In this document: one piece after another, positions 2,689-59,500 of the stretch | Layout: every line of letters begins with the position of its first letter | Position numbering within the stretch: position 1 is the stretch's first letter | DNA from: an uncultured Planctomycetales bacterium | GTDB lineage: Bacteria > Omnitrophota > Gorgyraeia > Zapsychrales > Zapsychraceae | Direction: 5' to 3' | DNA: 63,958 nt | Assembly (NCBI GenBank): GCA_964630825.1 | Contig: CAZVZR010000007.1 | Location: forward strand, 1-63,958 | The notes under the pieces: generated by a model | Told to the model about the DNA's origin: nothing | Databases searched by the model: none | The model's input: the letters and a program-made list of their open reading frames with translations, nothing else | Translations under genes and position numbers: made by a program

Positions 2689-2975
2689 GGTTTCCTAAAG
2701 GTCAATAAGCAGAGACGAGGCATCTGTGACTATTCGTCAAGCACGCCTCGTCTCTAGAATTAAACCCCGCTTATGCCGTCGGGTGAATATAAAGAGAACC
2801 TGATAACAGGTGGGTACCACCCCGAAAGCTCCTAAGAGCGGACGGAGGTTTGGCAATCCCTTTATATTCTTAAGGTCCTTTATGAATCACCCTAACGAAC
2901 ACAGCAGGGATATTTCGCATGGACTTATGGTAACACAACCTTTATTTATTATGCCACTGATTTTTTTGCAAATCT

Positions 2976-5006
2976 TTACCGCTGAATGGCCCCTAATTCA
3001 TCGGCCAAAGCTTTAATAATTTTTTGCTGTGCGAATTTTATTTCTTCATCCGTCAAAGTGCGCTTAAAAGATTGATACTGAAGAGAGAAAATTACGCCGC
3101 GGCAACCCGGCGGAAGTTTTTCACCAAGATATTGTTCTTTAAATTCGATTCCCGTTAAGATTTCTCCGCCTTCGCGACGGGCAATGTCTTTTACCTGCCG
3201 GAATAAAATGCCGTCTTTGACAGCGAGACTGATATCATGAACCGCTGCGGGGTATTCATTGAGCACCTTAAATTTCCTTGGCGGTTGGGCCTGCCGATAA
3301 AATTCTCCAAAATCCACTTGAACAAAATACAAACTATTTTGTTTGATGTCCCATTTATCCAATACTTCTCTATCAATTTTGCCGATTACACCTATTTTTT
3401 CACCGGCGACATAGATCCCGGCAGCTTGTGTATTATCAAAATACGGATCCTGACAATCCTGAAGATCAACACTCCCCACTCCCAAGTTGCACGCAATTGC
3501 TTCAACGGCACCTTTGATATCATAAAAGTCTACCACTAACTTCTGTGTTACCCGCCAATCTTCTATATTCACCCCGCCGGCAATAATTCCCAACGTATCT
3601 CTTTCCCCATTTTTTGTATATATTTTCCCTATTTCAAAAAGCTTAAAATCTTTATTCCCGCGGTTAATATTGGTTGCGGCAACGGAAAGTAAAAGCGGCA
3701 GCACCGACGGCCGCATGAATTCCTGATCCTGAGTTAAAGGATTTTTGATTTTGATTGCCTCTACATTGCCCAAATTTGATTTTGCCAGCGCGGCACGATT
3801 GGTCATGGCATAGGTAACCATTTCACTATACCCTTGCGCTAACAAACATTCTCGAACCTTGTTACGGATCCGTCGCTGTGAATTTTCAGGAATCTCTGTT
3901 GCCTTGATTTGCGGAAGTGCCGTGGGAATATTTTCATAACCGTAAATACGGGCAACTTCTTCGATAACATCTTTGTCGGATTTAACGTCGTTACGAAAAG
4001 TCGGTGGGGTTACTTTTAATCCGTTTGCTTTTATTTTACTTATCTTAAAATCGAGTTTGTGTAGCATACCGGAAACAGCCGGTAGTTTTATATCTACTCC
4101 TAAATACGAATTTATTTCTGCACCGGTAATGTTTATATCGATCACTTTTGTTTTTCTTTTTTCCGTAACGACATCCCTATATTTAACCACTTTGCCTTTG
4201 GCGCTTTCCAAAATTAAATCAACCGCCCGGCCAGCGCCGATTTTCACCATATCCCAATCTACACCGCGTTCAAAACGATATGATGAATCGCTCGACAACC
4301 CCAGCTTGCGCGCAGCGCGCCTGATTAAAATGGGATCAAAATATGCGCTCTCCAATAAAATGTTCTTTGTCTTTTCTGTCACTTCCGTGTCTTTGCCGCC
4401 CATCACGCCGGCAATGGCCACCGGTTTTTGTTCGTCAGCAATGATGAGGATTGATTCATCGAGAACCCGCTCGTCGCCATCAATAGTAATAATCTTCTCG
4501 CCTTTTCTTGCCCGCCGAACAATAATTTTTCTGCCCGCAAGCTTGTCAAGATCAAAAGCGTGCATCGGCTGGCCGGTTTCCAGCAAACAAAAATTGGTAA
4601 TATCGACAATATTGTTAATAGACCTTAATCCCAAAGCGGTAATACGTTTCTTAATCCACGCTGGTGTTTCCATCACAGAAACGCCTTCGATTACTGTACC
4701 GATATACCTTGTGCAGCCTTTTTTATCCAAGATACTGATATCACATTTCTTTGCTGGGAAACGCAGCTTGCTTTGTTTAAAAGGCATGTACTTTTTATTG
4801 AAAACAGCGCCGACCTCGCGGGCAATGCCGAGCATGTTTAAACAATCCGGCCGATTAGGCGTGACCTCGATTTCAAAAACCGTATCGCCGTCGACCGAAT
4901 GAATCTTCTCGACTTCCAGGCCGGCCATCGTCAACGCATGCGCCAGCTTTTCCGGTGCGACCGTGACATTCACATAATCTTTAAGCCAGTTAAGAGATAT
5001 TTTCAT
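2976..5006 (-). CDS. pheT: Phenylalanine--tRNA ligase beta subunit
   Basis: 676 aa. N-terminus MKISLNWLKDYV, B3/4 and B5 regions, C-terminal FDX-ACB-like end. Lies directly downstream of pheS. Confidence 0.95.
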   Translation of the reverse strand: MKISLNWLKDYVNVTVAPEKLAHALTMAGLEVEKIHSVDGDTVFEIEVTPNRPDCLNMLGIAREVGAVFNKKYMPFKQSKLRFPAKKCDISILDKKGCTRYIGTVIEGVSVMETPAWIKKRITALGLRSINNIVDITNFCLLETGQPMHAFDLDKLAGRKIIVRRARKGEKIITIDGDERVLDESILIIADEQKPVAIAGVMGGKDTEVTEKTKNILLESAYFDPILIRRAARKLGLSSDSSYRFERGVDWDMVKIGAGRAVDLILESAKGKVVKYRDVVTEKRKTKVIDINITGAEINSYLGVDIKLPAVSGMLHKLDFKISKIKANGLKVTPPTFRNDVKSDKDVIEEVARIYGYENIPTALPQIKATEIPENSQRRIRNKVRECLLAQGYSEMVTYAMTNRAALAKSNLGNVEAIKIKNPLTQDQEFMRPSVLPLLLSVAATNINRGNKDFKLFEIGKIYTKNGERDTLGIIAGGVNIEDWRVTQKLVVDFYDIKGAVEAIACNLGVGSVDLQDCQDPYFDNTQAAGIYVAGEKIGVIGKIDREVLDKWDIKQNSLYFVQVDFGEFYRQAQPPRKFKVLNEYPAAVHDISLAVKDGILFRQVKDIARREGGEILTGIEFKEQYLGEKLPPGCRGVIFSLQYQSFKRTLTDEEIKFAQQKIIKALADELGAIQR

Positions 5007-7315: not shown

Positions 7316-9046
7316 TTATGTTTTTGTAGTTAATTTTTCGTTTGCTTGTTTAATAAAATCTTCGATTGAACATATTCCTTTGTCGCCTTCTTTATAACTG
7401 CGGACAGCAACGGATTTGCTTTGCACTTCTTTGTCACCAACAACTAATAAATACGGAGTTTTCTTAACGGTGCCTTCGCGAATCCTTTTACCTAAACTCT
7501 CGTTGCGACCATCAATTATAACGCGCAAACCTAAATTTTGTAAATTTTCTTTTAGCTCTTCTGCAAAGGCATTGTGTTGTTCACCAATAGGAATAATGAT
7601 CGCCTGCACCGGTGCCAGCCATAATGGGAATGCGCCGCCGTAATGTTCGATGAGCGTGCCAATAAATCTTTCCATGCTGCCAAGAATTGCGCGGTGAATC
7701 ATCGTCGGCCGCGACTCTTTCCCATCTTCGTCAATATAGCTTAAATTAAATCTGGCCGGCAAAGCAAAATCACATTGTATGGTAGCGCACTGCCACTGCC
7801 GTCCCAACGCATCTTTTAATTTTATATCAATCTTTGGGCCATAAAATGCGCCATCGCCTTCATTGATTTGGTATTTTAGTTGCATTTCTTTTAACGAATT
7901 TTCCAAAGCATTCGTCGCAGTTTCCCATTCTTTAAGTTCGCCAATATAATCTTCGGGCCGTGTACTTAATTCGATATCCATCGATGTAAATCCAAAATCT
8001 TTCATGACATCAAACACAAATTGGACAACATTTTTAACCTCGTCCTTGACTTGTTCCGGCCGGCAAAAAATATGCGCGTCGTCTTGGGTAAAACCGCGCA
8101 CGCGCAACAATCCATGCAATACACCTGCTTTTTCCCGTCGATAAACGCTGCCGAGCTCAAAATACCGAACTGGCAGTTCCCGATACGAGCGCCCTCGCGA
8201 TTTATAAATTAAAATGTGCCCCGGACAATTCATCGGCTTAACGGCGTACTCTTCCTCGTCAACTTCAAAATAATACATATTTTGCCGGTAATGATCCGCG
8301 TGCCCACTTTGTTCCCATAATTTACCTTTTAAGATATGCGGCGTCATAACAAGTTGATAACCGTGTTTTAAATGTTGCTCGCGCACATAGTCTTCGATTA
8401 TTTTTCGCAACATCGCGCCATTAGGATGATAAAAAACAAGCCCGGCCCCGGCTTGCTCGTGATAAAAATTAAATAAATCCAATTGAACACCGAGTTTGCG
8501 ATGATCGCGTTTGTCCGCCTCTTCGAGCATCTTTAAATGATCGTCTAATTCTTTTTGCGAAGCAAACGCCGTTCCATAAATCCGCTGCAATGCAGGATTC
8601 TTTTCGTTGCCACGCCAGTAAGCCCCGGCGACAGATAACAATTTGAAAGCCTTGATTTCGCCGGCATTATCCACGTGCGGCCCTTTGCATAAATCAAACC
8701 ACTTGTCGCCCGTATCGAAAATGGATACCTCTTCATCAGGAATACCTTCGATAAGTTCGACCTTAAAATCTTCCTTCATTGAACCAAAAAGTTTTTTGGC
8801 TTCTTCCTTTTTCATAAACCGTTGGGTGAATTTGGGTTTATGTTTAATGATTTCTTTCATTCGTTTTTCAATCTTCTTCAAATCATCGTCGGTAAACGGC
8901 TCTTTCTTATCAAAATCGTAATAAAAACCGCTTTCGATAGCCGGGCCAATGGTGACCTTGGCTTCAGGCCAAATCTCTTTCACCGCCTGTGCCATCACGT
9001 GCGAGCAGCTGTGTCGTAATTTATCTAAATCGGTTTTGTATTCCAT
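7316..9046 (-). CDS. thrS: Threonine--tRNA ligase lacking the N-terminal TGS domain
   Basis: Starts at MEYKTDLDKLRHSCSHVMAQAVKEIWPEAKVTIGPAIESGFYYDFD, the N2/editing-domain entry and equivalent to about residue 66 of E. coli ThrRS. Class II motifs and anticodon-binding domain present. The 41 upstream track codons are basic and low-complexity and overlap a terminator-like hairpin. Confidence 0.92.
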   Translation of the reverse strand: MEYKTDLDKLRHSCSHVMAQAVKEIWPEAKVTIGPAIESGFYYDFDKKEPFTDDDLKKIEKRMKEIIKHKPKFTQRFMKKEEAKKLFGSMKEDFKVELIEGIPDEEVSIFDTGDKWFDLCKGPHVDNAGEIKAFKLLSVAGAYWRGNEKNPALQRIYGTAFASQKELDDHLKMLEEADKRDHRKLGVQLDLFNFYHEQAGAGLVFYHPNGAMLRKIIEDYVREQHLKHGYQLVMTPHILKGKLWEQSGHADHYRQNMYYFEVDEEEYAVKPMNCPGHILIYKSRGRSYRELPVRYFELGSVYRREKAGVLHGLLRVRGFTQDDAHIFCRPEQVKDEVKNVVQFVFDVMKDFGFTSMDIELSTRPEDYIGELKEWETATNALENSLKEMQLKYQINEGDGAFYGPKIDIKLKDALGRQWQCATIQCDFALPARFNLSYIDEDGKESRPTMIHRAILGSMERFIGTLIEHYGGAFPLWLAPVQAIIIPIGEQHNAFAEELKENLQNLGLRVIIDGRNESLGKRIREGTVKKTPYLLVVGDKEVQSKSVAVRSYKEGDKGICSIEDFIKQANEKLTTKT

Positions 9047-9130
9047 AATTGTTTTTAATTTTACTTTCAACGCTCGGGTCCTAATTCGGCAGATCCTCAT
9101 TAGGGGCCCCTTGTACTTTTTCTTATCAGC

Positions 9131-9163
9131 ACAAAACCTCCGCCCTTTCGGGTTGTCGGTTTT
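9131..9163 (-). terminator. Candidate intrinsic terminator of the tRNA operon
   Basis: Minus strand reads AAAACCGACAACCCGAAAGGGCGGAGGTTTTGT: AAAACC/GGTTTT stem, inner CCC-GAAA-GGG, then a U-tract. Confidence 0.4.
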
Positions 9164-9182
9164 ATGCATAAGATCAGTACAA

Positions 9183-9265
9183 TGGGCAAGGAGGGAGTCG
9201 AACCCTCACGGTCTTACAACCACAGGATTTTAAGTCCTGCGTGTATACCATTCCACCACTTGCCC
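9183..9265 (-). tRNA. tRNA-Leu (anticodon UAA), type II with long variable arm
   Basis: GGGCAAG...CAGGA-CUUAAAA-UCCUG...GAGGG-TTCGACT-CCCTC-CTTGCCC-A folded by hand. CCA is not encoded. Confidence 0.9.
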
Positions 9266-9277
9266 ATCCATTTCAAA

Positions 9278-9518
9278 AGGCGGGAATCGGAATTGAACCG
9301 ATGCATAGAAGTTTTGTCCCTCGCCTGTAGTATTTACAAAGGCGCGAGTCGGAATTGAACCGACGTATAGAAGTTTTGCAGACTTCTGCCTTACCACTTG
9401 GCTATCGCGCCGATATTCATGCTCGGGATTACTTGCCTAAAAAAATCCCGAAGCCATACCTTCAAAAAACTTTAATGGCAAGGGACAGACTTCTGCCTTA
9501 CCACTTGGCTACCCCGCC
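9278..9518 (-). tRNA. Interrupted tRNA-Cys(GCA): 5' part 9518-9486, 169-nt intervening sequence 9485-9317, 3' part 9316-9278
   Basis: GGCGGGGTAGCCAAGTGGTAAGGCAGAAGTCTG plus CAAAACTTCTATGCATCGGTTCAATTCCGATTCCCGCC-T join into a perfect cloverleaf. The insert ends TCCCTTGCC and GGCGAGGGA are complementary. See the corresponding finding. Confidence 0.6.
9340..9411 (-). tRNA. tRNA-Cys (anticodon GCA), complete, lying inside the intervening sequence of the interrupted tRNA-Cys
   Basis: GGCGCGA-TA-GCCA-AGTGGTA-AGGC-A-GAAGT-CTGCAAA-ACTTC-TATAC-GTCGG-TTCAATT-CCGAC-TCGCGCC-T. Discriminator is U. Confidence 0.92.
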
Positions 9519-9532
9519 ATATTTAATAAAAA

Positions 9533-9606
9533 TGGACCCGAGAGGTCTCGAACCCCTAACCCCCTCCACGTCAAGGAAGTGCTCTAACCAATTGAGCTAC
9601 GGGTCC
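9533..9606 (-). tRNA. tRNA-Val (anticodon GAC)
   Basis: GGACCCG-TA-GCTC-AATTGGTTA-GAGC-A-CTTCC-TTGACGT-GGAGG-GGGTT-AGGGG-TTCGAGA-CCTCT-CGGGTCC-A. Confidence 0.9.
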
Positions 9607-9612
9607 AAATTC

Positions 9613-10158
9613 TTATTTCAATGATTGCATAACCGTCTGAACAATGGTGTTTTCATCGGCGAGATGCCCTTCTCCCACCACCCCGCAAGCTAATTTGCCG
9701 GCAACTGGATCAATAAACTTTACACCATGTTCTTTAAGCTTACGGCAGTTTTCTTGAACAAAAACGTTTTTATACATTTGAGTATTCATGGCAGGAGCGA
9801 TCAGAAGTTTTGCTTTTGTTGCCAACACAATGCATGTCAAAAGATCATCCGCGATACCGTTGGCGATTTTGCCTATAATATTTGCCGTCGCCGGGGCAAT
9901 TAAAATAAGATCGGTTTCTTCGGCTAACCGAATGTGCGGCATTTGCCAAGGATCTTGGCTTTCATCCCACATCGACGTATAAACACGTTTACCGGCTAAA
10001 CTTGACAACGTCAAAGAAGTGATAAAGCTTTCGGCTTCCTTAGTCATCACAACCGAAACTTCTACACCCTTTTCCCCCAAATCCCTGATGATATCAGCTG
10101 CTTTATACGCGGCAATGCTACCAGTTACGCCTAAAAGTACTTTTTTATTTCTAGCCAC
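9613..10158 (-). CDS. coaC: Phosphopantothenoylcysteine decarboxylase-type flavoprotein (stand-alone CoaC domain)
   Basis: VLLGVTGSIAAYKAADIIRDL, HIRLAEETDLILIAPATANIIGKIANGIADDLLT. 181 aa, with no CoaB half attached. Confidence 0.82.
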   Translation of the reverse strand: MARNKKVLLGVTGSIAAYKAADIIRDLGEKGVEVSVVMTKEAESFITSLTLSSLAGKRVYTSMWDESQDPWQMPHIRLAEETDLILIAPATANIIGKIANGIADDLLTCIVLATKAKLLIAPAMNTQMYKNVFVQENCRKLKEHGVKFIDPVAGKLACGVVGEGHLADENTIVQTVMQSLK

Positions 10159-36987: not shown

Positions 36988-38856
36988 ATGGGTGTTGTTT
37001 ATAAACTTAAAGAAGAGGTCATTGACTTTATTCTTGAACAAAAGAAGTACGATCCCGCCATAAGTGTCCGCCGGCTTGCCAGCGTAGCGGCCGCAAAATT
37101 TCAAATCGAAATCTCCAAATCCTCAATAAATACTATCCTTAAAAACGCAAATTTAAGCAGTATGGTTGGCCGGCGCTCCGCGGCGTCTAAAGCTCCAAAG
37201 AAATTTACCATCCCCACAGAAAAGAAAAAACAGCTTTCCGCACAAGTTTTTCAATTGAGCGGACAAGAAGAGCAAGCAGTAAAAGAGCTCCCGGTTGTTC
37301 CAGAAAAACCTTCGTTGGTCCAACCCGCGAAAAAGGAAGAAGTGCCACCAGCACCGGCGTTGCCAGTAATCAACAATTCTGAAATTGTCCCAATCATTCC
37401 GGCAGCAACAAAACCCATTGTTACTCAAGAAGTTGTAGAAAAAGAAAATTTAACATCACCAAGTGTTTTTAAGCAAAGCTTTATCGACGAAATAGTATAC
37501 AGGCGTTTTGAGCATCGCGCGCAATATGGCCAGGCCTATAAAGGCATGGGGTGCGTTTTTTTGAAGGCAGCACAGTGGGAGGTGTTTTCTTTTCGGCGTT
37601 TTGATGAACTGCTTAGGCGTTATAGCCAAGGAGCTTTGCCGGAAGATTTTTCGGAACAGTGTTCACATTTGGTTTATCTAAATATTTTGGCGCAGCAAAA
37701 TTGTAATAATATAAAAGAATACCGCGGTTATGGCTTGCCGGTACTCAATGAATCAACAGGCTCAGTACCTGATGAGGCGGCTTTTCAGGCCCTCATCGAA
37801 ATGCCGTTTCGGATTCCTTCTTTGGTTTCTGATTATCTTGCCCTTAAAGCGGAAAACCGTTTGTGGGTTTCATATTTCAAATTGTTACTCGAAGACGGAA
37901 CGTCTTTGATTCTCGACGGTTGTTTATTATCTTTCTGGCCGGACGAGCGTGCCATTCCCAATTTTCTTTCTTGGCCGGTGGATAAAGCCACGACCTTGCT
38001 TTCACGGGATTTGGTCAGCAATGCGGAAGGGCTCAAGCTTTTCTTTACCGGTCAAGAGGCAAGCTTCTCAACGGAGTTTTTTAAAGCGGTAGGTTTTTTA
38101 GAGAACCTCAAAAATTTTCATGTTAAAGAAATAATTGGTTGTGATGCTCAGGGGCAAAAAATTATTGCGTTGACAACTATCCCCCGCCTGAAAAGAAATT
38201 ATATTGTCGGGATTTGGCCGCGGCAGAAAGAATTTGCCGAATTAACCAAATCATTGCGGTTTGCGGCGAAAAAACCGTTTTATGAAAAAAGCGTGGATAA
38301 AGCGGTTTATTATACGGAAACCCGTACGGATTTCTTCGTTTCACGTATCGATGAAACGCTGATCGGCAAGAGAATTATTACTTTGTGGTTTGAGGAAACA
38401 CAAGAACCAGCAGTTTCCATTTTAACGAATTGTGAAACCGTGGCCGCCGAAAAGATCACTTCTTTATTTTTAAGGCGTTGGCCGAATTGGGAAAGCAAGG
38501 GAGTGCTTTTTAATCGGGATGAGGGGGCAAGCCAGATTTCCGATGACAAAAAAGACAGAGACACTTCCCTTAATAATCTTTGGGCAGTTATCAGTGATTA
38601 TGCGCAAGGGCTGGAGAAACACATTTGCGCGAACTATCTGCCGCTTAATATGGATAAAGAAAGGCAGCGTCAAACCTTGAGGGCGATTTATCAATTAGAA
38701 GGCGGTGTTAAAGCAGGCAAAAGAGATTTTGCTGTTTTGTTAAAGACGGAAGAAGATTTTGCTTATAAAGAAACACTTGCCTGTATGCAAAAGGCGGTAA
38801 ATGAGAGTTGTGTTTTAGATGAGCGCGGCCGGCAGCTCATTATTGAAATTTGTTAA
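36988..38856 (+). CDS. Hypothetical protein with N-terminal HTH-like segment and Pro-rich linker
   Basis: 622 aa. ISVRRLASVAAAKFQIEISKSSINTILKNANL, then a PEKPSLVQPAKKEEVPPAPALP linker, then an unrecognised ~450-aa domain. SD AGGATGAG. Confidence 0.6.
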   Translation: MGVVYKLKEEVIDFILEQKKYDPAISVRRLASVAAAKFQIEISKSSINTILKNANLSSMVGRRSAASKAPKKFTIPTEKKKQLSAQVFQLSGQEEQAVKELPVVPEKPSLVQPAKKEEVPPAPALPVINNSEIVPIIPAATKPIVTQEVVEKENLTSPSVFKQSFIDEIVYRRFEHRAQYGQAYKGMGCVFLKAAQWEVFSFRRFDELLRRYSQGALPEDFSEQCSHLVYLNILAQQNCNNIKEYRGYGLPVLNESTGSVPDEAAFQALIEMPFRIPSLVSDYLALKAENRLWVSYFKLLLEDGTSLILDGCLLSFWPDERAIPNFLSWPVDKATTLLSRDLVSNAEGLKLFFTGQEASFSTEFFKAVGFLENLKNFHVKEIIGCDAQGQKIIALTTIPRLKRNYIVGIWPRQKEFAELTKSLRFAAKKPFYEKSVDKAVYYTETRTDFFVSRIDETLIGKRIITLWFEETQEPAVSILTNCETVAAEKITSLFLRRWPNWESKGVLFNRDEGASQISDDKKDRDTSLNNLWAVISDYAQGLEKHICANYLPLNMDKERQRQTLRAIYQLEGGVKAGKRDFAVLLKTEEDFAYKETLACMQKAVNESCVLDERGRQLIIEIC

Positions 38857-38884: not shown

Positions 38885-38994
38885 AGTTGGACGAAAAGGT
38901 GCGTTAGCCGCAAGGCTAATTACACAAAGCAACGGTTCCTTTTTCGAAGGAAGGCCGGGCTGCCGAAACAACTAGCTCAAAATTTGGACCATTG
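38885..38994 (+). ncRNA. Structured 5' leader, possibly a GEMM-I-like (c-di-GMP class I) riboswitch aptamer
   Basis: GNRA hairpin TTAGCC-GCAA-GGCTAA, then ACACAAAGCAACGG, a second hairpin, and GGCCGGGCTGCCGAAA. Compare my recollection of the GEMM-I consensus, ACGCAAAGC..CCGG ... GCCGGGUUACCGAAA. By eye only. Confidence 0.3.
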
Positions 38995-39077: not shown

Positions 39078-39560
39078 ATGAAGTGGTTTATATTTCTCGT
39101 CGGTGTTTTTTTCTTTACTGCTGTTCAGCCGTATTTGGCGCAGGCGCAAAACAAGGTGAGTTTATCGACCTATTACCCTGCCCCGTCTGGGAATTTCCAA
39201 CAAATTAAAATAGAACCAGAATCAACGCCGCCGGCATGTACGACCGCAGATGTTGGTTTGATATATTATCAGGGCTCCACGGACAATGAGTTAAAGATTT
39301 GCGACGGAAGCCAATGGCTGAATGTCGTCGGCCCATGGCAGGAAAATAGTACAGACGTTTATTTTTCCGGCGGGAATGTGGGGATTGGCATAATTTCTCC
39401 CAAAGAAACTTTACATATACAATCGACAAGCAACGCAACAGTTTATATTAATGGTTCGGGTGGGGGAAAAATAATTTTAAAGGATTCTTCAGGAACAGGG
39501 TGCACAATGATTACGACTTTAAATGGGGCCATATCCCCGACGCCGATAGCGTGCCCGTAA
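39078..39560 (+). CDS. Secreted fibre-like protein, short paralogue
   Basis: Signal peptide MKWFIFLVGVFFFTAVQPYLAQA|QNKVSLSTYYPAPSGNF, GLIYYQGSTDNELKICDGSQW, and one GNVGIGIISPKETLHIQS repeat. Confidence 0.65.
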   Translation: MKWFIFLVGVFFFTAVQPYLAQAQNKVSLSTYYPAPSGNFQQIKIEPESTPPACTTADVGLIYYQGSTDNELKICDGSQWLNVVGPWQENSTDVYFSGGNVGIGIISPKETLHIQSTSNATVYINGSGGGKIILKDSSGTGCTMITTLNGAISPTPIACP

Positions 39561-39601
39561 AAGAAATTTTTAGTAAGGAGATGGTAAAAGGAGATGGAAA
39601 A

Positions 39602-41332
39602 ATGAAAAAAATATTCAAGCTATTTGCCGCCAGCAGTATTTTTTTAATGACCGCGTTGCCCTCGTGGGCACAAAACACAGTAACATTGTCGACGTATTAT
39701 CCCGCTCCATCCGGGAACTACAATCAAACACAATTTAAACCTCTTTCGGGAGATCCTGTAACATGTGGTTCCGGCACGGAAGGGACAGTCTATTATAGTT
39801 CAGCAACACATGAGTTAAAAGTATGTACTGGTACAGCCCCTTTTGGCTCGATTGGCGGAATATTCTCCCATACAAAACCTGGAAGCGTTGATAATGTTTT
39901 TCTTGACCCAGCCAAATATCCTCAACAAGCGTTCGGGATAGGTACTTCAACGCCGGGATATTTATTGGACGTTGAAGCGGGTAGTGGCGCCGACGGGGTT
40001 TTTTCGCTCATGTCAAATCTGGGGGCGGGATCAACAGATAAGTGGCTTTTTAATGCCAACAATTTGGATAAGGCACTTCATGTCAGAAATGGCGGGAACG
40101 TGGCGGCAAATGATCGCTTGACTCTCACTAATGATGGGAAATTAGGCATTGGTACTACAGCGGTGGGAGATGTAATCAGCCCTTTAACCATCAAATCACC
40201 TGTATTGGGTGGTTTGGGGCTTTTGCATACAAATTCAAATGCTGGCGGTACTACTACTATTCAACTCAATACGTATCTTGACAAACTTGATGGGAGTGTC
40301 GCTAGTCCTGCTGCTTGGATTGGTATGGGTACAACACAGCCGCTTAATTTTTATGTAAACAATACACTCACCCCATTAATGTCTCTAAATCCACCAGTAA
40401 CAGCCACAACGGGGACATTAAATACAATAAGCATTAATCCTACCAATACTGTTTTCACAGGAAACGTGGGGATTGGGGCTTCAAATCAGATTTCACCTTT
40501 GGTAGTTCCTGCTATCCCAGGAAACCTTGGCATTGGGATAACGGCTCCTGGACAAAGATTGGATGTATATGGAGCAGGGTCTCAAATAATAAGATTAAGA
40601 TCGATGGGAAACACAAGTCCTACACCGACGGCGGCGATGGGCGCAGGGATAGTCATGGGTGATGTCTATACAGGAGATTCTCCTCCAACACCTGTAACTT
40701 ATACGATGGGTGTTAACGGGATTCAAAATAAATTTTTAATTTCCTCAGGAGGAGCCATAATACTTAGCACCTTTATGCCTGCTAATCCATATTTCTTAAT
40801 TGATAGTTCTAATACCCTCGTTCCCGGTAATATAGGGATGGGGACAAGTGCACCAGCGGCGCACTTGCATGTATCTGGGGCAGGCAATCAATTTATAAAG
40901 GTAGAATCAACTGATTCGAACGGTCTGGGAGCTGGAATTACGTTCACTGGGGCAGACACAGGAGGTCCGGTGACGATTCCGCAGGCAAAAAGTTTTACTA
41001 TCGGCTATGCGGACGGAGAATTGTACTCAGCACCCAATTTTAATTCTTTTGTTATATCGACAGGGGCAGATCTTACTCAGCCCAAGCTTGTTGTTGCTCC
41101 GAATGGAAACGTTGGTATTAATCTACCTACTGCTTCTCCTAATGCCAGCTTAGATGTTTATGGTACGGTGCACATCAATAATCTTTTGCAATTAGAGCCG
41201 CAGTCCACCGTACCAAACTGCGTTAACAATGGGTTACTTTATGTGAGATCGACGTCTCCAGGAACCTTATGCTTTTGTGATGGCTCAGGCATTTGGAAGG
41301 CTGTGTATCCAACAACAGGAACATGTAACTAA
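39602..41332 (+). CDS. Secreted fibre-like repeat protein
   Basis: Signal peptide ...ALPSWA|QNTVTLSTYYPAPSGNY, at least 6 G-N-(V/I/L)-G-(I/M)-G-x-x-x-P...L-(H/D)-V-x-G repeats, and a C-terminal GLLYVRSTSPGTLCFCDGSGIWKAV. SD AAGGAG. Confidence 0.7.
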   Translation: MKKIFKLFAASSIFLMTALPSWAQNTVTLSTYYPAPSGNYNQTQFKPLSGDPVTCGSGTEGTVYYSSATHELKVCTGTAPFGSIGGIFSHTKPGSVDNVFLDPAKYPQQAFGIGTSTPGYLLDVEAGSGADGVFSLMSNLGAGSTDKWLFNANNLDKALHVRNGGNVAANDRLTLTNDGKLGIGTTAVGDVISPLTIKSPVLGGLGLLHTNSNAGGTTTIQLNTYLDKLDGSVASPAAWIGMGTTQPLNFYVNNTLTPLMSLNPPVTATTGTLNTISINPTNTVFTGNVGIGASNQISPLVVPAIPGNLGIGITAPGQRLDVYGAGSQIIRLRSMGNTSPTPTAAMGAGIVMGDVYTGDSPPTPVTYTMGVNGIQNKFLISSGGAIILSTFMPANPYFLIDSSNTLVPGNIGMGTSAPAAHLHVSGAGNQFIKVESTDSNGLGAGITFTGADTGGPVTIPQAKSFTIGYADGELYSAPNFNSFVISTGADLTQPKLVVAPNGNVGINLPTASPNASLDVYGTVHINNLLQLEPQSTVPNCVNNGLLYVRSTSPGTLCFCDGSGIWKAVYPTTGTCN

Positions 41333-45901: not shown

Positions 45902-48900
45902 ATGTTAATTTTGCTAAAAAAAATTATCCGCCACAGTTTCCGTCAAAAATTCAAGAATTCTTCCAAAGGACAAGTAGCGGTTATCCTTATATTGATCACT
46001 GCCGTTGCATTAATCTTTTACGCGGTGAGCCTCAATATGGGCCGCGTTGCTATTGTGAAAACTCAAACCCAAATCGCCTCAGCTTCGGGAGCTAGTGAGT
46101 TGGCCTCCGAGATGGCAAGCTATGGGCAAAGCCTTTTTATGGAAGTCCTCGGGGGGAAGCGCAAAGTTTGTGATAGCAGTTCTGTTTTGGGCGCTATTGT
46201 AGCCGTTGTTCTCGCAATACTTATTATTATTATTCTTGTTGTCTTAGCAGTTTTTACTTGGGGATCGAGTTTGATAGGCATACCATATGTTATATTGGTG
46301 GCGGGGTCTGTGCTTGGGTTGGCTGCAGCAACGGCTGGGCTTATTATGGCAACGATTGCTCTTTATGAACAGGCATTCATAATACAGCCGAGCATAACAG
46401 ATCTATGGAATAAATCTTTGGCCGCAGTATTGTCCAGAGAAGATATGTATTTAGAGCAAGGGATATCAGCAGGTTGGGGGAGAATTGTAACCGACAACAA
46501 ACAAGTCCCAGACATTCTTGATTTTAATGCCGATGGAGTTTATGGTTTTGATGGCCAAGGTAAGCCGAAGGATTGGGTATCACGCCCGGCAATTTATTAT
46601 GACATGAGGGTTAGGGGTGCCCAAAACAAGCCTGTTCCGGAAATAGACGCTTTTGTTAAAGCCCTCGGGGAATTTTTATACAAAGATCCTGATGGAACGG
46701 GAAACACGTGGGGATTGATTGATCCGTTGCCTTGTTGCGATGCCTCTAATCCTAAGTGCAACCCTAATCATCCTTGTTGCCAAAGCCCGCCGCCGTCTGA
46801 GTGCAACCCTTGCTGTGTTCCGGAATTTGTTAATGATCCGACGGATCAAGGTGGAACTGGCCAAGTCCGTATTAGGCCGGAATGTTGTGACAATAACACG
46901 CCACCGAATGCTTGCGGCGTAGCAACCACGTCCTGTGGTACAGCCGCGAGCTGCGGTTCATTAAGTCCTTACGGGAATGCTTATCCGTATGTTTATAACT
47001 CGATCTTTCAAAATCAAGAAAACAACAACACGACTGACCCGAATTTCTTTTTATCCTTTTTGGAGCAATTGGGGCATGACGATGAAAACGATAAGTATAC
47101 TATTCCGGAACCTGCTTCCCAAGCAAACCCTTCACTGTATGACCCTACAGCATTACAGCAAAGTATTGATCCGGAAGGGCCTCTGCGGTGGCGATTTACC
47201 GACGCAACAGGATTTTATCATGATCCCGTTTGGCCTTACCCTGAGCCACGGCCGCCGGGGGATAAACAGTCAGGGATATTTCCATTTTTATATAAAATTC
47301 AAGATTGGGGGATGGACCTCAATCAATTGAATAAATTACAAACAGTATCGTGGTCAGGAACCCCTCTTAAAGACGGAATGCATTGTTATTGGTATGATTG
47401 GGCTTGGGATCAGGCTTATGATACTTCCGGAAACGACTGCACCAGTTTGTTGACGGGAAAGGAAATGCCCCAGGAACTTCGTCGACAGATTGACTGGCCG
47501 GCAACGAACGGAATATTCAATGCTAATCCTATGCAGGCATTAATTTTGCCCCAAGACCCCAATAAATTGATTTTTGATAAAACCTGGTGGGTTGACGGAA
47601 CACGAGACAATGTTTGCACGAGCGGTGTTTGTAATCCACCATTAGCGGCTGATAAAGTTATAGTTCCCCAGGGGATTATTGCTGGTGAGAATGAATGCGC
47701 TCAAAACGGGCTTGAACAAACAGATCCGAATACAGGGGCAAAGCTGGGTTTTTGGAAACGCGGCGATGTTCAGTTTTGTTCAACACAATGGCCTTATGAC
47801 GCGCATTGTACACAGCATCTTTGGGACCCTGTAAATAATACCAGTGCGTGTGTTGTTGATCAGGGGCTGCCAACTCAACAATATGTAGATTGTAATTGTA
47901 TGGACCCAGCGGTAGATAAAACTTTGTTCAGGGATGATGTTTTAGATACAATGGTCCATGGGTTTAAAGACTTTATTTCGCTCGCGGAATCGGTTCTTGC
48001 CATGAAATCAATGGAACGGAAAAATTCATTGAGTTATTGGGGGCCGCAGATGTATGAATGGGTTAATCCTACGGATGGTTTTATCGCAATCATTAGGGCA
48101 CGCATTCAAGAAATATTAGTTAGGCTCAAAACTAATTGGCGCGATCTTTCTTTTCAAGGGACGACTTGCGAGGAAGTCTGGTGCGTGCCGCCGGCAACAG
48201 ATCTCAACAATGGGAGGGATTGCCAAAGCGCTTTAAACATTCCTTTAAGGGAACGAGCCACTTTTGATATTAATGGTAATACTATTCGCGGGGATATGGC
48301 AGATATTATTGCCTGCTTGGAGTGGAATTCGGGTTCTGTGAATCAGAATAACCTTAATACTTATGCGGATGGGACAACCGCCAGAGACAATGCTTTGAAG
48401 TTTGAAAAATGCCGCGAATCTTGTTCATGGGATACATGCCGCGCTCCGCGGCTACCGCGGTCGTTGGTTCCTCCGGCGGATTTTAGCCGTATTGCTTTTG
48501 AACCGGCGGACCCGAACCCGGCGGTAGCAACGCTTTTGGAAACGGATATCAAAAAGATGTTGAATTGTTACGACAGTATTCCGATAGGCAATAACACAAA
48601 TTGTACTACCGGGCCAGGGAGTCAATTGGAAAAATGCCAGGCCATGCCCATGACAAAGTTTAATCAGTCGTGTCAAAAATATTTTACCGATGATCCCGCG
48701 ACTTTTAATGCGGATGCCATTGATTTTGATTGCGGGCACCGGTATTTTGATTTTGTTCCGGATTCGTTAAGGCGCGGCCCGCCCGGGGATCCGGCTGCTG
48801 TTTGCTACGGAGCAACGTATTTTCCCACTTATTGGCCGGCGGATATTGATTTTTCAGTCCCCGGAACATGGACATATGCTGACATCGGGAATGCGGCAAG

Positions 48901-50677
48901 CGCTGCTTCCGCGGCCGGCGAAACAAATGATCTTAATACTATTCAAGCTTGCCAGCTTTCTTGCAATGGCTCCCCGACGGTTTGCGATAACACCAAATGC
49001 CAGATAATGCCGCGGTATCAAAATATTTTTGCATCAGGAACTTCCGTTGACCCATTAGCAGGGATTTCTTACAGGCAAGAGATTGAAAATGCTTATAACT
49101 GGTATATCGATCCAGCTCATTTTGGCCCCCTACGGGCGGGTGATCCTGACCCTACCAAGATAAAGGCGTGCCTAACTGATGCTCTGGATCCTCTTAGGCC
49201 ATGTCTTAATTTCCCCACTACTTGCCGGGTAATGCCGCAATATTTAAATCAATGGGCGGCGGGAAACCAATGGTATGACGATGTGCAGGCGGCTCTTACT
49301 TGGCTCCAGGCACAAACACCAAGCCGCGGGCCGGGTGACCCGGATTATGACGCGATAGTGGCATGTGACACAGCATGTGCTTATACTGAAAATATCCCCA
49401 ATGTTCCTTTGGGGAATCCGGGAAATCCAGGCGGCGATCCGGCTCCCGGGGCGACGACAACCTGCCGGGCTATGCCGTGGTTTGATTCACAATGCGTGGC
49501 GGATTTGTATTTTACCGAAAACCCCAATCAAGATAACATTCCTCCAGGGGCTCCGGGGGACGGTATTGGATTTGAGGTTCAGGATTGCGGAAGCGTGGTT
49601 CCATGGGGACCGGGCAATGATTGGTACGATAGAATTGTAGGTACATTGCCTATGGGAGCAAGTCCTCCGGGCCAAATAGATAATGGTGCGTTGATGCTGG
49701 CGAACAAATGGTGTGATTTGCGTATGGGCGACGCAGATCCGACTACAACTCAGAATAACGGTTGGTTATTGAACGCAGAAAAAAGTTGGCATGAAGCGGA
49801 GAATCAAGTGCCTAAATTTAAGTTACGTGCGGAGTTTCTACAGCAACGTTTGGATGAATTAAACAATATTATTTCTGTTTTCGAAAAAGCTTTACCGGAA
49901 TTTGATGCGCTATTAAATGCAGCAAAAGATTTAATTGATTGTTATCAGAATTCGTCAACATGTTTAAATGAAGAATCCGGGCTTCCCTATACTTTAATTT
50001 ACGGCTGGCAGAGCGACCCGCCACAAACCACTAGAAAGTCGGCACCAGGTGAAGGATATTGGCATATAGTTAAGGTGGAGGCACGGTCACCTAAAAGATG
50101 TGACGGGGCTTGTGGAGTCCCCGGTACTTGTTCAAGTGGGGGGGCTACTTGTCCCGACCCAGCATTCCCAACAGTAAAAACCAGTGTTAGTGGTTTTATG
50201 GACACAACACGTTGTTATGAACTTGAAAACACTGATGGATTAGTTAAGTTTCGGGTGACGCGTTGGGATGAAGACAGAGATTCGAATTTGATAACATTCC
50301 CCGGTGGGATTCCGATTTGGCAATTTCACTTGCCTGAACACCCTGCCCGTGGGAAAGGGACAATTGGAAATACAACAGCAGCGGGTTTGTATACGGCTTG
50401 TAAGGATCAGTTTTATCAACCTCCATCAGCAATAAGCATTCCTGCACAGTATAAAGATGTTTTTGGTAGAGCGTTTCTGTTAAGTGAACGAATTGACGGC
50501 AGCGACGGTGTTGATCCTTCTATCGGGCGTACCGTAAACATTCCCTGTTGGCAAAAAGCGGTTGATTTGGTTTCACAAGGTGTTATGACCGAGGTTTGTG
50601 CACAATATTATTATCATGAAAATGGTCTAGCAAAGGGGATGAGTTTTAAATTTGTCCCTTGTCCGGATAAATTCTAA
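45902..50677 (+). CDS. Giant TadG-like protein (1591 aa) with Cys/Pro/Trp-rich extracellular region
   Basis: N-terminus SKGQVAVILILITAVALIFYAVSLNMGRVAIVKTQTQIASASGASELA resembles the TadE/G-like N-terminal motif. Three further hydrophobic helices follow, then a Cys-dense region (PLPCCDASNPKCNPNHPCCQSPPPSECNPCCVPEF). Confidence 0.7.
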   Translation: MLILLKKIIRHSFRQKFKNSSKGQVAVILILITAVALIFYAVSLNMGRVAIVKTQTQIASASGASELASEMASYGQSLFMEVLGGKRKVCDSSSVLGAIVAVVLAILIIIILVVLAVFTWGSSLIGIPYVILVAGSVLGLAAATAGLIMATIALYEQAFIIQPSITDLWNKSLAAVLSREDMYLEQGISAGWGRIVTDNKQVPDILDFNADGVYGFDGQGKPKDWVSRPAIYYDMRVRGAQNKPVPEIDAFVKALGEFLYKDPDGTGNTWGLIDPLPCCDASNPKCNPNHPCCQSPPPSECNPCCVPEFVNDPTDQGGTGQVRIRPECCDNNTPPNACGVATTSCGTAASCGSLSPYGNAYPYVYNSIFQNQENNNTTDPNFFLSFLEQLGHDDENDKYTIPEPASQANPSLYDPTALQQSIDPEGPLRWRFTDATGFYHDPVWPYPEPRPPGDKQSGIFPFLYKIQDWGMDLNQLNKLQTVSWSGTPLKDGMHCYWYDWAWDQAYDTSGNDCTSLLTGKEMPQELRRQIDWPATNGIFNANPMQALILPQDPNKLIFDKTWWVDGTRDNVCTSGVCNPPLAADKVIVPQGIIAGENECAQNGLEQTDPNTGAKLGFWKRGDVQFCSTQWPYDAHCTQHLWDPVNNTSACVVDQGLPTQQYVDCNCMDPAVDKTLFRDDVLDTMVHGFKDFISLAESVLAMKSMERKNSLSYWGPQMYEWVNPTDGFIAIIRARIQEILVRLKTNWRDLSFQGTTCEEVWCVPPATDLNNGRDCQSALNIPLRERATFDINGNTIRGDMADIIACLEWNSGSVNQNNLNTYADGTTARDNALKFEKCRESCSWDTCRAPRLPRSLVPPADFSRIAFEPADPNPAVATLLETDIKKMLNCYDSIPIGNNTNCTTGPGSQLEKCQAMPMTKFNQSCQKYFTDDPATFNADAIDFDCGHRYFDFVPDSLRRGPPGDPAAVCYGATYFPTYWPADIDFSVPGTWTYADIGNAASAASAAGETNDLNTIQACQLSCNGSPTVCDNTKCQIMPRYQNIFASGTSVDPLAGISYRQEIENAYNWYIDPAHFGPLRAGDPDPTKIKACLTDALDPLRPCLNFPTTCRVMPQYLNQWAAGNQWYDDVQAALTWLQAQTPSRGPGDPDYDAIVACDTACAYTENIPNVPLGNPGNPGGDPAPGATTTCRAMPWFDSQCVADLYFTENPNQDNIPPGAPGDGIGFEVQDCGSVVPWGPGNDWYDRIVGTLPMGASPPGQIDNGALMLANKWCDLRMGDADPTTTQNNGWLLNAEKSWHEAENQVPKFKLRAEFLQQRLDELNNIISVFEKALPEFDALLNAAKDLIDCYQNSSTCLNEESGLPYTLIYGWQSDPPQTTRKSAPGEGYWHIVKVEARSPKRCDGACGVPGTCSSGGATCPDPAFPTVKTSVSGFMDTTRCYELENTDGLVKFRVTRWDEDRDSNLITFPGGIPIWQFHLPEHPARGKGTIGNTTAAGLYTACKDQFYQPPSAISIPAQYKDVFGRAFLLSERIDGSDGVDPSIGRTVNIPCWQKAVDLVSQGVMTEVCAQYYYHENGLAKGMSFKFVPCPDKF

Positions 50678-56284: not shown

Positions 56285-56443
56285 ATGAATAAAGCCACGG
56301 AAATCAGGAAGCAAATTCAGTCATCTAAAAGCAAATTTAAGGGATTGCTCTATCAGATAGGGGCAATCCTTTTTTTATTTGTTTATCACATCTTTGGTGC
56401 AATGCCTGTCTTACAATTAAAGCCAATTAAAATACGTACATAA
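56285..56443 (+). CDS. Possible 52-aa small membrane protein (alternative reading of the leader)
   Basis: Own translation gives MNKATEIRKQIQSSKSKFKGLLYQIGAILFLFVYHIFGAMPVLQLKPIKIRT. No good SD. It contains the terminator-like hairpin and is in the same frame as the giant ORF. Confidence 0.25.
   Translation: MNKATEIRKQIQSSKSKFKGLLYQIGAILFLFVYHIFGAMPVLQLKPIKIRT
56339..56376 (+). terminator. Terminator-like hairpin about 130 nt upstream of the giant ORF
   Basis: AAGGGATTGC-(CTAT-cag-ATAG)-GCAATCCTT followed by TTTTT. Confidence 0.55.
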
Positions 56444-56506
56444 CAAGGAATCATTTTTTACCCAAAAAAGGGTATAGTATTAGTATTTTTCAGTTTATTA
56501 ATAGAC

Positions 56507-59500
56507 ATGAATGAAAACCCTGACAACCAGCCTGTCCCGGAAGATAAGCCTAGTGAAGAGAATTTAGAACCGCTAGGCCAAGACGCTTCTCAAGAACCTG
56601 AAAGCATACAAAGCCTTCCGGAACAGGATCAGCCTTTGTCTGGACAGGAAAATCAAGAGTTGCCGATCTTGAAATTTGAATCTCTATCAAATAATGTCCA
56701 ATCTGAACCGTCAATAGGCGACGTTATGACTGGGGCGGATATCCAGCCAACTGAAGAAGTGGCTGAATTTTTGGACAAATGGGAAGCGCGGGAAGATGAT
56801 TTAGATCAGCCGTTTAGAAGCCGTTTTAAAACCTGGATTCGAGCCGTAGCGTTGTTGGTAGTTATTACTTTTCTCCCAGATCAGGCTAGCTGGGCTTTTA
56901 ACTATGATCCTCGCGTTATTTGGAAAGATAAATTTGCCCAACAACGAGGGGTTGTTGAAACAATAAATCCTAACGCTTCTGAAGCAGAAATTGCTTCGGT
57001 CCGCGTTGCCGAGAGCATTAATCACCTTCTGACCCAGATTGCCGAAAAAGAGAATCCCCGGATTCAGTTACAATTAAGTAAAGAAGCAAATTCACAAAAT
57101 GAAACCGTCCCCCTGCAAATAGAATCTCAATTATTTTTTAGTAATAGTAATATCGGTCAAATTACTGCTTGGCTTAAGACTCCCAGTATCCATCCGTTAA
57201 ACTGCGGCGTTTATGCCTTAAAAGATATTCTTGCCCATAACAACATCCATCCTTCTTTGGAAGAAATTTCGGTCAGCACGTTAGCCGTTGACCTTTTAGG
57301 TAACATCGTTAAACCGGGTGAAGAGAAACTCAAAACTTCGCTTTACGCGCTTAACAAAGTAGCCCGTGCTTATAATTTAAATTACCAGCCGGTTAAATTA
57401 AATCCAGAAGATGTTCTTAAAATCATGCCGCCGTATATCGCTAATTTCGGTTCAGAGCATTTTGTCACCGTTACCGCTGTTGATGAGCACAACATTTATT
57501 ACAACGACATTGGTCAATCTTACTCTATGCCGCGCAATCAGTTTGTTTCCAACTTAAGTGGTTTTGTTTTGGCGGAAAATGTTGATCTTTACAAAGATCT
57601 TTCTTTGGAAATTGTTCCGGATAACATGCAAGCGTTTGTTTGGGGAAACAGGTGGCGCGACAGTTCCGATGATTTGCCGGGGTTCATGAAAAAAGGTGTA
57701 ATCGAAAAGATGCTCATTAGTTTTGCCATTCAAGTTGTAATTGCGCTCGCAGGTTATGGGCTTGGTGCGCTTGCTGGAGGGGTTGGAGGTGCAGCCAATG
57801 CGGCAGGACAAGCAGGCAGCACAACAGGATCTTTTGCCAACGTTGCGGCAGACGCAGCCGTGGTTGGCAACGCTTTGACATCAGTACAAATTGGGATGAT
57901 AGGAACGCAAATAGGCGCTAATTCATTTGCGGAGGCGGTAGCAACGGCGTGTGTTGTGAAAGGTAAATGCACGGAACAACAAGCCATGTCCATGGCTAAT
58001 TCAATTTCTGGCGGAGTTCAGCTTGCCGGCCAGATCATCGGTTATATCGCGATGGCAGTGGCCCTGGCCACAATACTTAATGGAGTATTTGAGGGTTTTA
58101 GTCAGGCGGGTGGAGCCGCTGCGAAGGAAGGATTTAGTCAAGCGGTAGTCAAGGGGGTGGAGCCAGGTGTCACACCGGCTGCTACAGAAGTGGCAAAACA
58201 AACTACCACTCAAATTCTCTGGAATATGCTGAAGAGTTCTTTGGTCGGACAGATTCTTACGCTAAATTATGGCGCTGTGTGGGATAGTATTAAAACACTT
58301 GCAACAGATATGTTGGATGTTGTTTGGGGAACCGTAGAACAACCTGGAGTAGTGAGACAAATTGGGAATGCCTTTATGGATTTCTATTCCAATATTGGAA
58401 AGGCTTTTACTGCTTTTGGTGAAGGAGGTCTTAGTGGGTTCAAAGCGGGAATGTCACAGCTTGGGCATGCTTTTGTTACTTTGGCCAAAGATTTAGGCGC
58501 GGCAGTGGATCATTTTATTTCCGGGACGCAAAAGGCAATTACAAAATTTATTTTTGGTGACCCGCAAGCGGCAGCGCATGCCGGGACCCAAGCAAAAAAA
58601 TTGGAACCGGAAGCACAGTATGTAAAGGATGAAGCTTATAAAGGCATGGGAGCAAATTCGCCAGAGAAAGCTGCTGAACTGCGAAGCCAGGCTCAGCAAG
58701 CGGGCGCTGGTGAGGCATTTGATAAGCTGGATAGCGTGACCCAAAAACTTAGCGATGCTATGCCTGAGATGCGTGCCAATGCTGAGCAGGCGGTAATAGA
58801 AGCACAATTGGATCCTTCGACCATATCAACACCCGGTTCAGCAGCAAATCAAAAATATACAGAAGTTCTTGGTAATGAAATGAAGACCTGGTGGGCTAGC
58901 AATAATCCGTTTGATTTAACCGGGGTGCTTACGGAAGGGGTAAAATATTTTGGTAAAGCAGTCGCTATGCAATATGCCCGGCAATACATTAAACAATGGA
59001 TCACTGAAAAAGTTGCCAAGGAGTTTGGCGCGGATAAAGGCGACATTATTGGTCAGGCGGTCGTCGGATATGTTTCCGGACTTGGCGCTGATTTGGCGTT
59101 AGGCATTGGGGCAACCGGGTTGGAACAAGTTGTTGGTTTAACAGGTTTTAATCTTGCGCTCACCGATGCCATTGATCCTCAGGCAAGTGAATTGAAAAAA
59201 GAACCCGGAGCGGCCACGGGCGTGGATCGTGTTTTTGGCGTGGCAGCGAGCATCGTTAGTCATAGCAATTTAAAAGATTTTATCGTCAGCACCGTAGTAC
59301 GGTTGGTTGCCAAAGAAGCTGGGGTTAAAGGCGACACGGCCCTCTCGCAAGTTTTGGGTAATGCCGGCGTGGTGTTGTTTGGCACGAACGGTTATTACGC
59401 GCAAGTATCGGCAAAAAAAGAAGAGATTGTTAAAGGGACATTGAATAAAGTAGCTTCGCAATCAGTTAACCCAGAACATCCTGAAGGCAAGGGTTTTTAT

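Follow-up and report, generated by a model that had tools for sequence, protein, structure and literature searches.

How did a complete bacterial tRNA-Cys gene come to lie inside the anticodon loop of another tRNA-Cys gene with the same anticodon, and what became of the gene that it interrupts? The arrangement occurs in contig CAZVZR010000007.1 of an uncultured member of the Omnitrophota, a 64-kb stretch of DNA that was analysed as a whole and is called the window in what follows. There, two halves of an outer tRNA-Cys(GCA) gene flank an insert of 169 nt that contains an inner tRNA-Cys(GCA) gene. This nested tRNA-Cys feature is real, recurrent and apparently undescribed. The insert entered at the DNA level, exactly between G34 and C35 of a resident tRNA-Cys, at the centre of the palindrome TGCA in the anticodon loop. 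The insertion was blunt, without target-site duplication or microhomology. Our preferred explanation, to which we give a probability of roughly 55%, is a small mobile cassette with no reading frame of its own, which enters bluntly between TG and CA, brings a replacement tRNA, and leaves the outer halves as recent remnants.

All coordinates of the split gene are read on the minus strand, and from 5' to 3' on that strand the locus has the following features.

9532..9607, minus strand: tRNA-Val(GAC), called by ARAGORN; the upstream neighbour of the split tRNA-Cys in the same cluster.
9486..9518, minus strand: 5' half of the outer tRNA-Cys(GCA), positions 1-34, 33 nt, with the 3' end ...GTCTG (wobble G34).
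9317..9485, minus strand: the insert, 169 nt, made up of a 74-nt 5' arm, the 72-nt tRNA and a 23-nt 3' arm.
9477..9485, minus strand: left end of the insert, TCCCTTGCC (family consensus TSCCTYG), present in three lineages and complementary to the right end.
9421..9453, minus strand: hairpin of the 5' arm, CTTCGGGATT...AATCCCGAGC, with the stem motif CTYCGG/CCYGAGC common to the loci L082 and L088 described below.
9340..9411, minus strand: the inner, complete tRNA-Cys(GCA), called by ARAGORN and matched by Rfam RF00005 at 69.3 bits; presumed to be the working copy.
9317..9325, minus strand: right end of the insert, GGCGAGGGA (family consensus CGARGGA), from an alignment of the three lineages.
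9278..9316, minus strand: 3' half of the outer tRNA-Cys(GCA), from C35 to discriminator U73, 39 nt, beginning CAAAAC.
9182..9266, minus strand: tRNA-Leu(UAA), called by ARAGORN; the downstream neighbour in the same cluster.

The initial annotation, made from the letters alone, had described two halves around a 169-nt insert with a complete tRNA-Cys(GCA), and both ARAGORN and Rfam bear this layout out. It had also held that the halves, once joined, form a clean cloverleaf. Joined in silico, they are indeed recognised by ARAGORN: the call is a tRNA-Cys(GCA) of 72 nt, and its cloverleaf is regular. The joined outer gene differs from the inner one at six places, raw positions 5, 7, 46, 48, 64 and 67, at which the outer gene has G5, G7, G46, A48, U64 and C67. 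Two compensatory swaps (pairs 5:67 and 48:64) and one change from A-U to G-U (pair 7:65) were recovered as described, and the sixth difference lies in the variable loop. The same holds for the complementarity of the insert ends, which pair over 9 bp with one G-U, and for the unambiguous junction, which is fixed to the base, with no repeated base on either side and no possibility of sliding. For the 241 nt as a whole, the predicted structure of minimum energy is a double cloverleaf, one nested in the other, closed by the helix of the insert ends (-91.2 kcal/mol, z = -5.75). There is no reading frame in the 169-nt insert. On the genomic sequence ARAGORN does not report the outer gene, even with introns of 0-400 nt allowed, and because of this, nested tRNA loci are invisible in current annotations.

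Is the arrangement peculiar to this one contig? We compared the window with related loci and contigs, which are labelled here with L-numbers. A separately assembled Logan contig (L081, from SRR8931233) matches the window without any difference across the 5' junction and ends within the tRNA sequence that is repeated; it possibly comes from the window's own sample. Two further Omnitrophota loci have the same nested architecture.

L088: 5' half 1421-1453, 55 nt, inner tRNA-Cys 1509-1580, 49 nt, 3' half 1630-1668; insert of 176 nt.
L082: 5' half 3218-3229 and 3260-3280, 46 nt, inner tRNA 3327-3398, 25 nt, 3' half 3424-3462; insert of 143 nt.

The L088 allele was assembled from two further samples as well (L182 and L184), three samples in total, JGI 3300013137, 3300013138 and 3300013125. 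The nested units of L088 and L082 directly follow an orthologous flavoprotein gene, and the break falls after G34, between CTG and CAAAAC, in L088, L082 and the window alike. An alignment of the three lineages shows that the insert ends are kept, with T[C/G]CCT[T/C]G at the 5' end and CGA[G/A]GGA at the 3' end. Also kept is the hairpin stem CTYCGG/CCYGAGC in the 5' arm, and the remaining sequence of both arms has diverged too far to be aligned easily. The inserts make up a family of 143-176-nt elements in the Omnitrophota, in each of which a left end and a hairpin precede a complete tRNA-Cys(GCA), itself bordered by short flanks of native appearance, and a right end follows. The composite end and hairpin motifs were confined to nested loci in 1.12 Mb of related loci plus the window, and within the 64-kb window no further copies of the hairpin or the ends occurred beyond chance. 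A viral contig collection gave 0 matches to the 5' junction pattern and 15 chance matches, in coding sequence, to the 3' junction pattern. In blastn searches of the inserts against phage and plasmid records, the tRNA part alone was matched.

The genes inside and outside the break are of different types in two of these loci. The inner genes of L082 and L088 have in common the acceptor stem GGCGGCA/TGCCGCC, which occurs in no resident gene of the set. The outer genes of the same two loci are of the common resident type, that of L082 being 1 nt from the intact gene of L093. In every case, the isoacceptor carried as cargo is the same as that of the target, and the insert always points the same way as the tRNA operon. 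No sigma-70-like promoter or terminator was predicted on the tRNA strand inside the inserts, which fits the single orientation and makes it probable that the inner tRNA is made from the operon transcript by the usual processing enzymes.

The event itself is best seen in a pair of filled and empty sites. L185, an NCBI metagenome-assembled genome (GCA_028714555.1), has the same gene order as L088 and a flavoprotein 89% identical to that of L088. Its unsplit tRNA-Cys (2558-2629) equals the joined halves of L088 at 72/72 positions. Between the filled and the empty site there are zero duplicated bases and no microhomology, and the 176-nt insert sits flush. Of the four-fold degenerate sites in the neighbouring gene, 23/58 differ between L088 and L185, a Jukes-Cantor-corrected distance of 0.56. 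In L190 (80%) and L189 (78%), which are more distant from L088, the gene is also unsplit at 34/35. Since L185, L190 and L189 are all unsplit, parsimony places the insert as a gain on the L088 branch.

The nearest relatives of the window (L162-L166, 69-71%) all have an unsplit tRNA-Cys, and the outer gene stands where the unsplit gene stands in relatives. A tree built from the flanking protein shows the nested loci in scattered positions. Taken together, the filled and empty pair, the scattered distribution and the types of the inner and outer genes indicate that a discrete element entered the same site in different lineages. The initial annotation had listed, among other options, a tiny tRNA-carrying element with terminal inverted repeats. 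Homologous inserts at the same nucleotide in three lineages, along with the filled and empty pair, bring this option to the fore.

The pair also corrects an earlier view of the compensatory differences in the window. These had been taken as a sign that the two halves co-evolved as one molecule while 170 nt apart, a claim that the comparison does not support. Because the L088 halves match the intact gene of L185, the compensatory differences reflect the separate histories of two once-independent tRNA-Cys genes. They thus predate the split and are no proof of later co-evolution. Over positions 8-45, a stretch of 38 nt, the two genes of the window show no difference, and they share features found in no other tRNA-Cys of the set, for example the stem GAAGT/ACTTC. 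This identity and the shared lineage-specific features suggest that gene conversion may have occurred between the two; such conversion could preserve a tRNA-like state of the halves even where selection is absent.

How would a cell survive such an insertion? The insertion would destroy the resident tRNA-Cys, which is normally single-copy and essential. The inner tRNA would be co-transcribed with the cluster, released by RNase P and 3' processing enzymes, and would take over decoding, so that the insertion would be tolerated. If the cargo must replace a destroyed essential target, then a cargo of the same isoacceptor is what one expects. Whatever follows, processing of the inner tRNA would cut the outer RNA in two. 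The outer halves would be dead remnants that later decay, and their still perfect state in the loci at hand would point to recent insertion, possibly also to gene conversion from the near-identical inner copy. As the element has inverted-repeat ends and a palindromic target, we suggest that the moving enzyme is encoded outside the element and is a dimeric site-specific nuclease or recombinase acting in trans.

Two loci give signs that the outer copies are not maintained. The outer gene of L082 has a 30-nt double-hairpin insertion in its D loop (3230-3259, after C12), and at L085:616-940 fragments of an outer gene, lacking the 3' acceptor end, lie around a complete tRNA-Cys. The L085 debris consists of a 19-nt 5' piece with the acceptor GGCGCGA, the type of the window's inner gene, a D-loop hairpin insertion, and, beyond the complete tRNA-Cys, a 31-nt duplicate of the anticodon arm. 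We read it as an older tRNA-Cys around a complete one. The option of a recently inactivated paralogue, also raised initially, is a natural consequence of a tRNA-carrying element and in line with the decay in L082 and L085; the inactivation itself we infer.

Several points weigh against a mobile replacement cassette. No well-known chemistry of transposition combines terminal inverted repeats with a blunt insertion that leaves no duplication. In the loci examined, all copies seen lie in tRNA-Cys and an autonomous version did not turn up, and candidates for a transposase, integrase, nuclease, homing endonuclease or RNA ligase are absent from the 64 kb (Pfam, 38 reading frames). The inner anticodon stem-loop is that of the target, so the inner gene should itself be expected to serve as a target. 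The outer gene has all of its stems intact in each of the three clean cases, namely the window, L088 and L082. The L088 halves have 0/72 changes against about 20 expected if they had been neutral for the whole branch, which needs recency or gene conversion and equally fits a still-functional spliced gene. The L088 insertion is either young, at less than about 0.04 substitutions per site under neutrality, or has left halves that remain under constraint. Finally, the modelled helix of the insert ends would bring both junctions together in the RNA, as an intron would need.

These last points lead to the reading that treats the insert as a mobile bacterial tRNA intron of a new kind, with both tRNA-Cys genes functional. 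We consider it doubtful. In such an intron the paired insert ends (7-9 bp) would sit atop the anticodon stem with the junctions side by side, and the inner tRNA would be an excision handle for RNase P and 3' processing enzymes. The acceptor stem, the anticodon stem and the insert-end helix would hold the outer halves, and an endonuclease, or trimming plus an RNA ligase, would join G34 to C35. This would amount to protein-dependent tRNA splicing in Bacteria without a bulge-helix-bulge. The intact outer halves of the window, L088 and L082 favour it, as does the lack of any change in L088 despite the distance of 0.56 to the empty-site lineage, and precise presence or absence without duplication is typical of introns. 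So does the structure, since the nested double cloverleaf with terminal helix is the minimum-energy fold in L082 as well as in the window and the terminal helix has one compensatory change (C-G in the window and L082, A-U in L088). In Archaea, tRNA introns are known to move from one tRNA gene to another, and such an intron can contain a further functional RNA, according to the summary of Fujishima 2010 given in PMC10714607. The same helix, however, has 1-2 mismatches beside the junction in L082 and L088 and is missing from the minimum-energy fold of L088; the left end agrees with the reverse complement of the right end at 8/10 positions in the window, 7/10 in L082 and 6/10 in L088. The known catalytic signatures are missing too. 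Neither the group I core (P3-P9) nor the U at -1 and the G at the intron end is present, the last exon base being G34 and the last insert base A in all three lineages. Inspection by hand and by script found no bulge-helix-bulge, with 2/4 pairs in the central helix and 0-1/4 in the outer helix in the window, L088 and L082. On both counts the initial annotation had reached the same result. In Rfam searches, at the gathering threshold as well as at permissive cut-offs (E <= 10 for 9150-9650, E <= 1 for L082, L085 and L088), tRNAs alone were returned, with no intron or ribozyme; self-cleaving ribozymes (hammerhead, twister, pistol, hatchet, HDV-like) had no match at E <= 10 in the window or at E <= 1 in the other three. 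The 64-kb window encodes neither an EndA splicing endonuclease nor an RtcB-type ligase, and a bacterial enzyme that cleaves the two strands at a helix base and then joins them again is not known. An intron would also have to account for the 30-nt D-loop insertion of L082, which would need removal too, and for the broken outer copy of L085, and efficient splicing would not require a cargo of the same isoacceptor. The broader proposal that the halves are used at the RNA level is without positive evidence and, in the form of a spliced intron, shares this low standing.

A local accident, in which illegitimate recombination or faulty break repair put a tRNA-Cys copy into a paralogue and made the outer gene a pseudogene, is far less probable still. 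The cluster is visibly unstable across the phylum, with several insertion scars, and the lineage-specific features shared by the inner and outer genes of the window would fit a local copy. Independent accidents would not be expected to break three lineages at the same nucleotide and to leave homologous ends and a hairpin, nor would one expect the L088 insertion to be flush to the base without microhomology. As for an assembly artefact, a chimeric join of the tRNA-Cys alleles of two co-occurring strains, the stretch of 38 identical nucleotides can confuse assemblers and L081 ends inside that very repeat. The 74-nt and 23-nt arms, however, are unique, and no second allele would supply them; L081 reproduces the 5' junction, and the same architecture was recovered from three samples for L088 and again from L082. 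Misassembly, which had been named as a way to overturn the locus, can be set aside with hardly any reservation.

The replacement cassette can also be held against known systems, and every compared family with a testable defining feature fails at least one test. Group I introns occur at 34/35 of bacterial tRNA genes (bioRxiv 10.1101/2020.01.27.920355). They resemble the insert in their precise position in the anticodon loop, the lack of duplication and the patchy distribution. Unlike them, the insert has no catalytic core, has G before the junction and A at its end, is shorter, and is nearly half tRNA. Among the Archaea there are tRNA introns, split and tri-split tRNAs, and the transposing tRNA introns of Thermoproteales (PMC4390854, PMC4033280, PMC10714607). 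These have in common with our loci disrupted tRNA genes, complementary sequence beside the break, mobile introns and an intron that can hold a functional RNA. They differ in using a bulge-helix-bulge and the archaeal splicing endonuclease, whereas our loci lie in bacteria and carry as cargo the same tRNA in full. Islands and prophages with tyrosine integrases target tRNA genes at sites in the anticodon loop or T loop (bioRxiv 10.64898/2026.04.20.719267). Like the insert, such islands use a tRNA gene as target, sometimes in the anticodon loop, and bring tRNA sequence that keeps the gene working. They carry only the 3' part of a tRNA, however, with a direct repeat at the far end and an integrase, and are kilobases long, whereas the insert is 143-176 nt long, has a complete nested tRNA and no integrase, and splits the loop rather than duplicating it. 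An integrase-type island was rejected since the loop is divided into CTG and CAAA without duplication, L185 is simply the two flanks joined, and neither insert nor window has an integrase. A tyrosine or serine recombinase is unlikely on inspection, since the loop is split without a repeated core.

The IS200/IS605 family, its small derivatives and the REPINs moved by RAYTs insert without duplication next to a fixed short sequence. The likeness to our element lies in the precise insertion without duplication, the constant flank TCTG, the hairpin near the left end and the small, non-autonomous size. These elements, however, need hairpins at both ends and lack terminal inverted repeats, and in the inserts the distance between end and hairpin varies (12-30 nt). 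An IS200/IS605 derivative would thus fit the lack of duplication and the fixed left flank ...GTCTG and fails on the inverted-repeat ends and the missing right hairpin; the hairpin occurs in the left arm only, 12-30 nt from the end, and the right arm (23-49 nt) has none besides the tRNA itself. A miniature inverted-repeat transposable element (MITE) derived from a DDE transposon would explain the terminal inverted repeats but not the absence of a target-site duplication in L088 and L185; as to copy number, no second copy lies within the 64-kb window.

Free-standing homing-endonuclease cassettes, such as phage T4 SegB, sit in tRNA clusters. These cassettes, and the synthetic "cleave and rescue" drives, are similar in being selfish units that disrupt an essential gene and provide a rescuing copy, in the natural case within a tRNA cluster. 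They differ in that our insert has no endonuclease gene in it or next to it, and in that its rescuing tRNA has the same anticodon stem-loop and is not visibly resistant. A homing endonuclease with an immune inner allele was rejected for this reason: the target anticodon stem of L082, GTGGT/ACCAT, is that of the inner gene of L088, and in the window the inner and outer genes do not differ over 8-45. A resemblance of the right end of the insert to the tRNA-Leu anticodon stem, CGNAGGAC, is too weak to be considered. A literature search, which was not complete, found no tRNA nested in its isoacceptor, in agreement with the initial annotation, and no tRNA introns described in Omnitrophota.

Mobile DNA that targets tRNA genes normally restores the gene with a copy of its 3' end and needs an integrase. 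A unit of 143-176 nt without an enzyme gene would be a natural form of "break it and bring the spare", conceptually like cleave-and-rescue drives. If the inserts are indeed replacement cassettes, a site-specific enzyme that cuts or recombines between TG and CA of the tRNA-Cys anticodon loop is implied, and serial replacement would explain the high variation of the tRNA-Cys acceptor stem among Omnitrophota. The loci would then also be a bacterial example of the mobile-element origin of split and intron-containing tRNA genes, an old idea from archaeal work. Should the outer gene prove to be spliced instead, Bacteria would have their first tRNA intron outside group I.

Other insertions are found in the tRNA cluster of relatives. 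A frame of about 90 aa for a GIY-YIG protein (by Pfam in L163) lies just after tRNA-Leu(UAA) at L163:1605-2180 and L001:4818-5320. On either side of the frame lies a copy of a direct repeat, which begins within the T loop of tRNA-Leu and comprises about 88 nt in L163 (the 3' end of the tRNA plus 71 nt downstream) and the last 21 nt of the tRNA in L001. The unit looks like a nuclease cassette inserted into the T arm that brings a replacement 3' end. At L003:4630-5300, the spacer from tRNA-Cys to tRNA-Leu is taken up by a frame with LAGLIDADG-type motifs (LVGLITSDG..., LIDGDGSI), around which no tRNA fragments were seen. A GC-rich hairpin, TCCGCC-N3-4-GGCGGA, occurs at L082:3230-3259, L085:915, L142:2378, L158:4734, and L163:1694 and 2113, and a tandem pair of it makes up the D-loop insertion of L082; it is possibly a dispersed repeat of the REP type.

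In a 79% relative of L088, represented by contigs from three samples (L186:2531-2620, L187:1933-2036 and L188:1690-1815), tRNA-Cys is interrupted after C12, between GGCGTGGTAGCC and CTGCCTGCCTGCG... This is the position of the D-loop insertion of L082, with another and longer sequence. Each of the three contigs breaks off within about 125 nt, suggesting a repeated element, and the interruption has no Rfam match and no viral-contig match. Orphan pieces of other tRNAs were seen as well: a 19-nt 5' piece of tRNA-Leu upstream of the complete Leu gene (L082:3602-3620), a 3' piece of tRNA-Leu (L096:3863-3880), and 3' pieces of tRNA-Val, of a different allele, about 100 nt after the complete Val gene (L165:3615-3635, L166 and L133:5168-5188). 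Such remains make the entire cluster look like a hot spot of insertions in which part of a tRNA gene is replaced. Its gene order varies too, being Val-Cys-Leu in the window, Cys-Leu-Val in nearly all of about 28 Omnitrophota relatives, and Val-Leu-Cys in L044. The spacer between Leu and thrS in the window (about 9040-9180) contains GGACCCGAGCG, a sequence similar to the start of the window's tRNA-Val or, on the opposite strand, to the 3' end of that gene. It may be a scar of the move; the match is short and could be due to chance.

The window is bacterial chromosome near the replication origin, with parAB, yidC, dnaA, dnaN, gyrB and gyrA, and it also holds yicC-gmk-rpoZ-flavoprotein, the tRNA cluster, thrS-infC-pheST and 6S RNA (2760-2913, minus strand, 48.9 bits, downstream of pheT). 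The flavoprotein adjoining the cluster has its nearest proteins in Candidatus Omnitrophota, at 61-71% identity. The mechanical frame of thrS (7316-9169, minus strand) begins 13 nt past tRNA-Leu, and comparison with relatives suggests that the real start is probably the ATG near 9036 (MEYKTDLDKLRHSC...). Large frames without a Pfam match, among them 45902-50677 (1,591 aa), 36988-38856 and 39500-41332, sit among Tad/Flp pilus genes (RcpC, a secretin, two ATPases and two TadB/C-like proteins). A c-di-GMP-I riboswitch (38888-38967, plus strand, 41.8 bits) lies just upstream of unannotated frames in this pilus region. An open frame of more than 2,480 codons (about 56440-63958, plus strand) runs off the end of the window and belongs to a giant protein.

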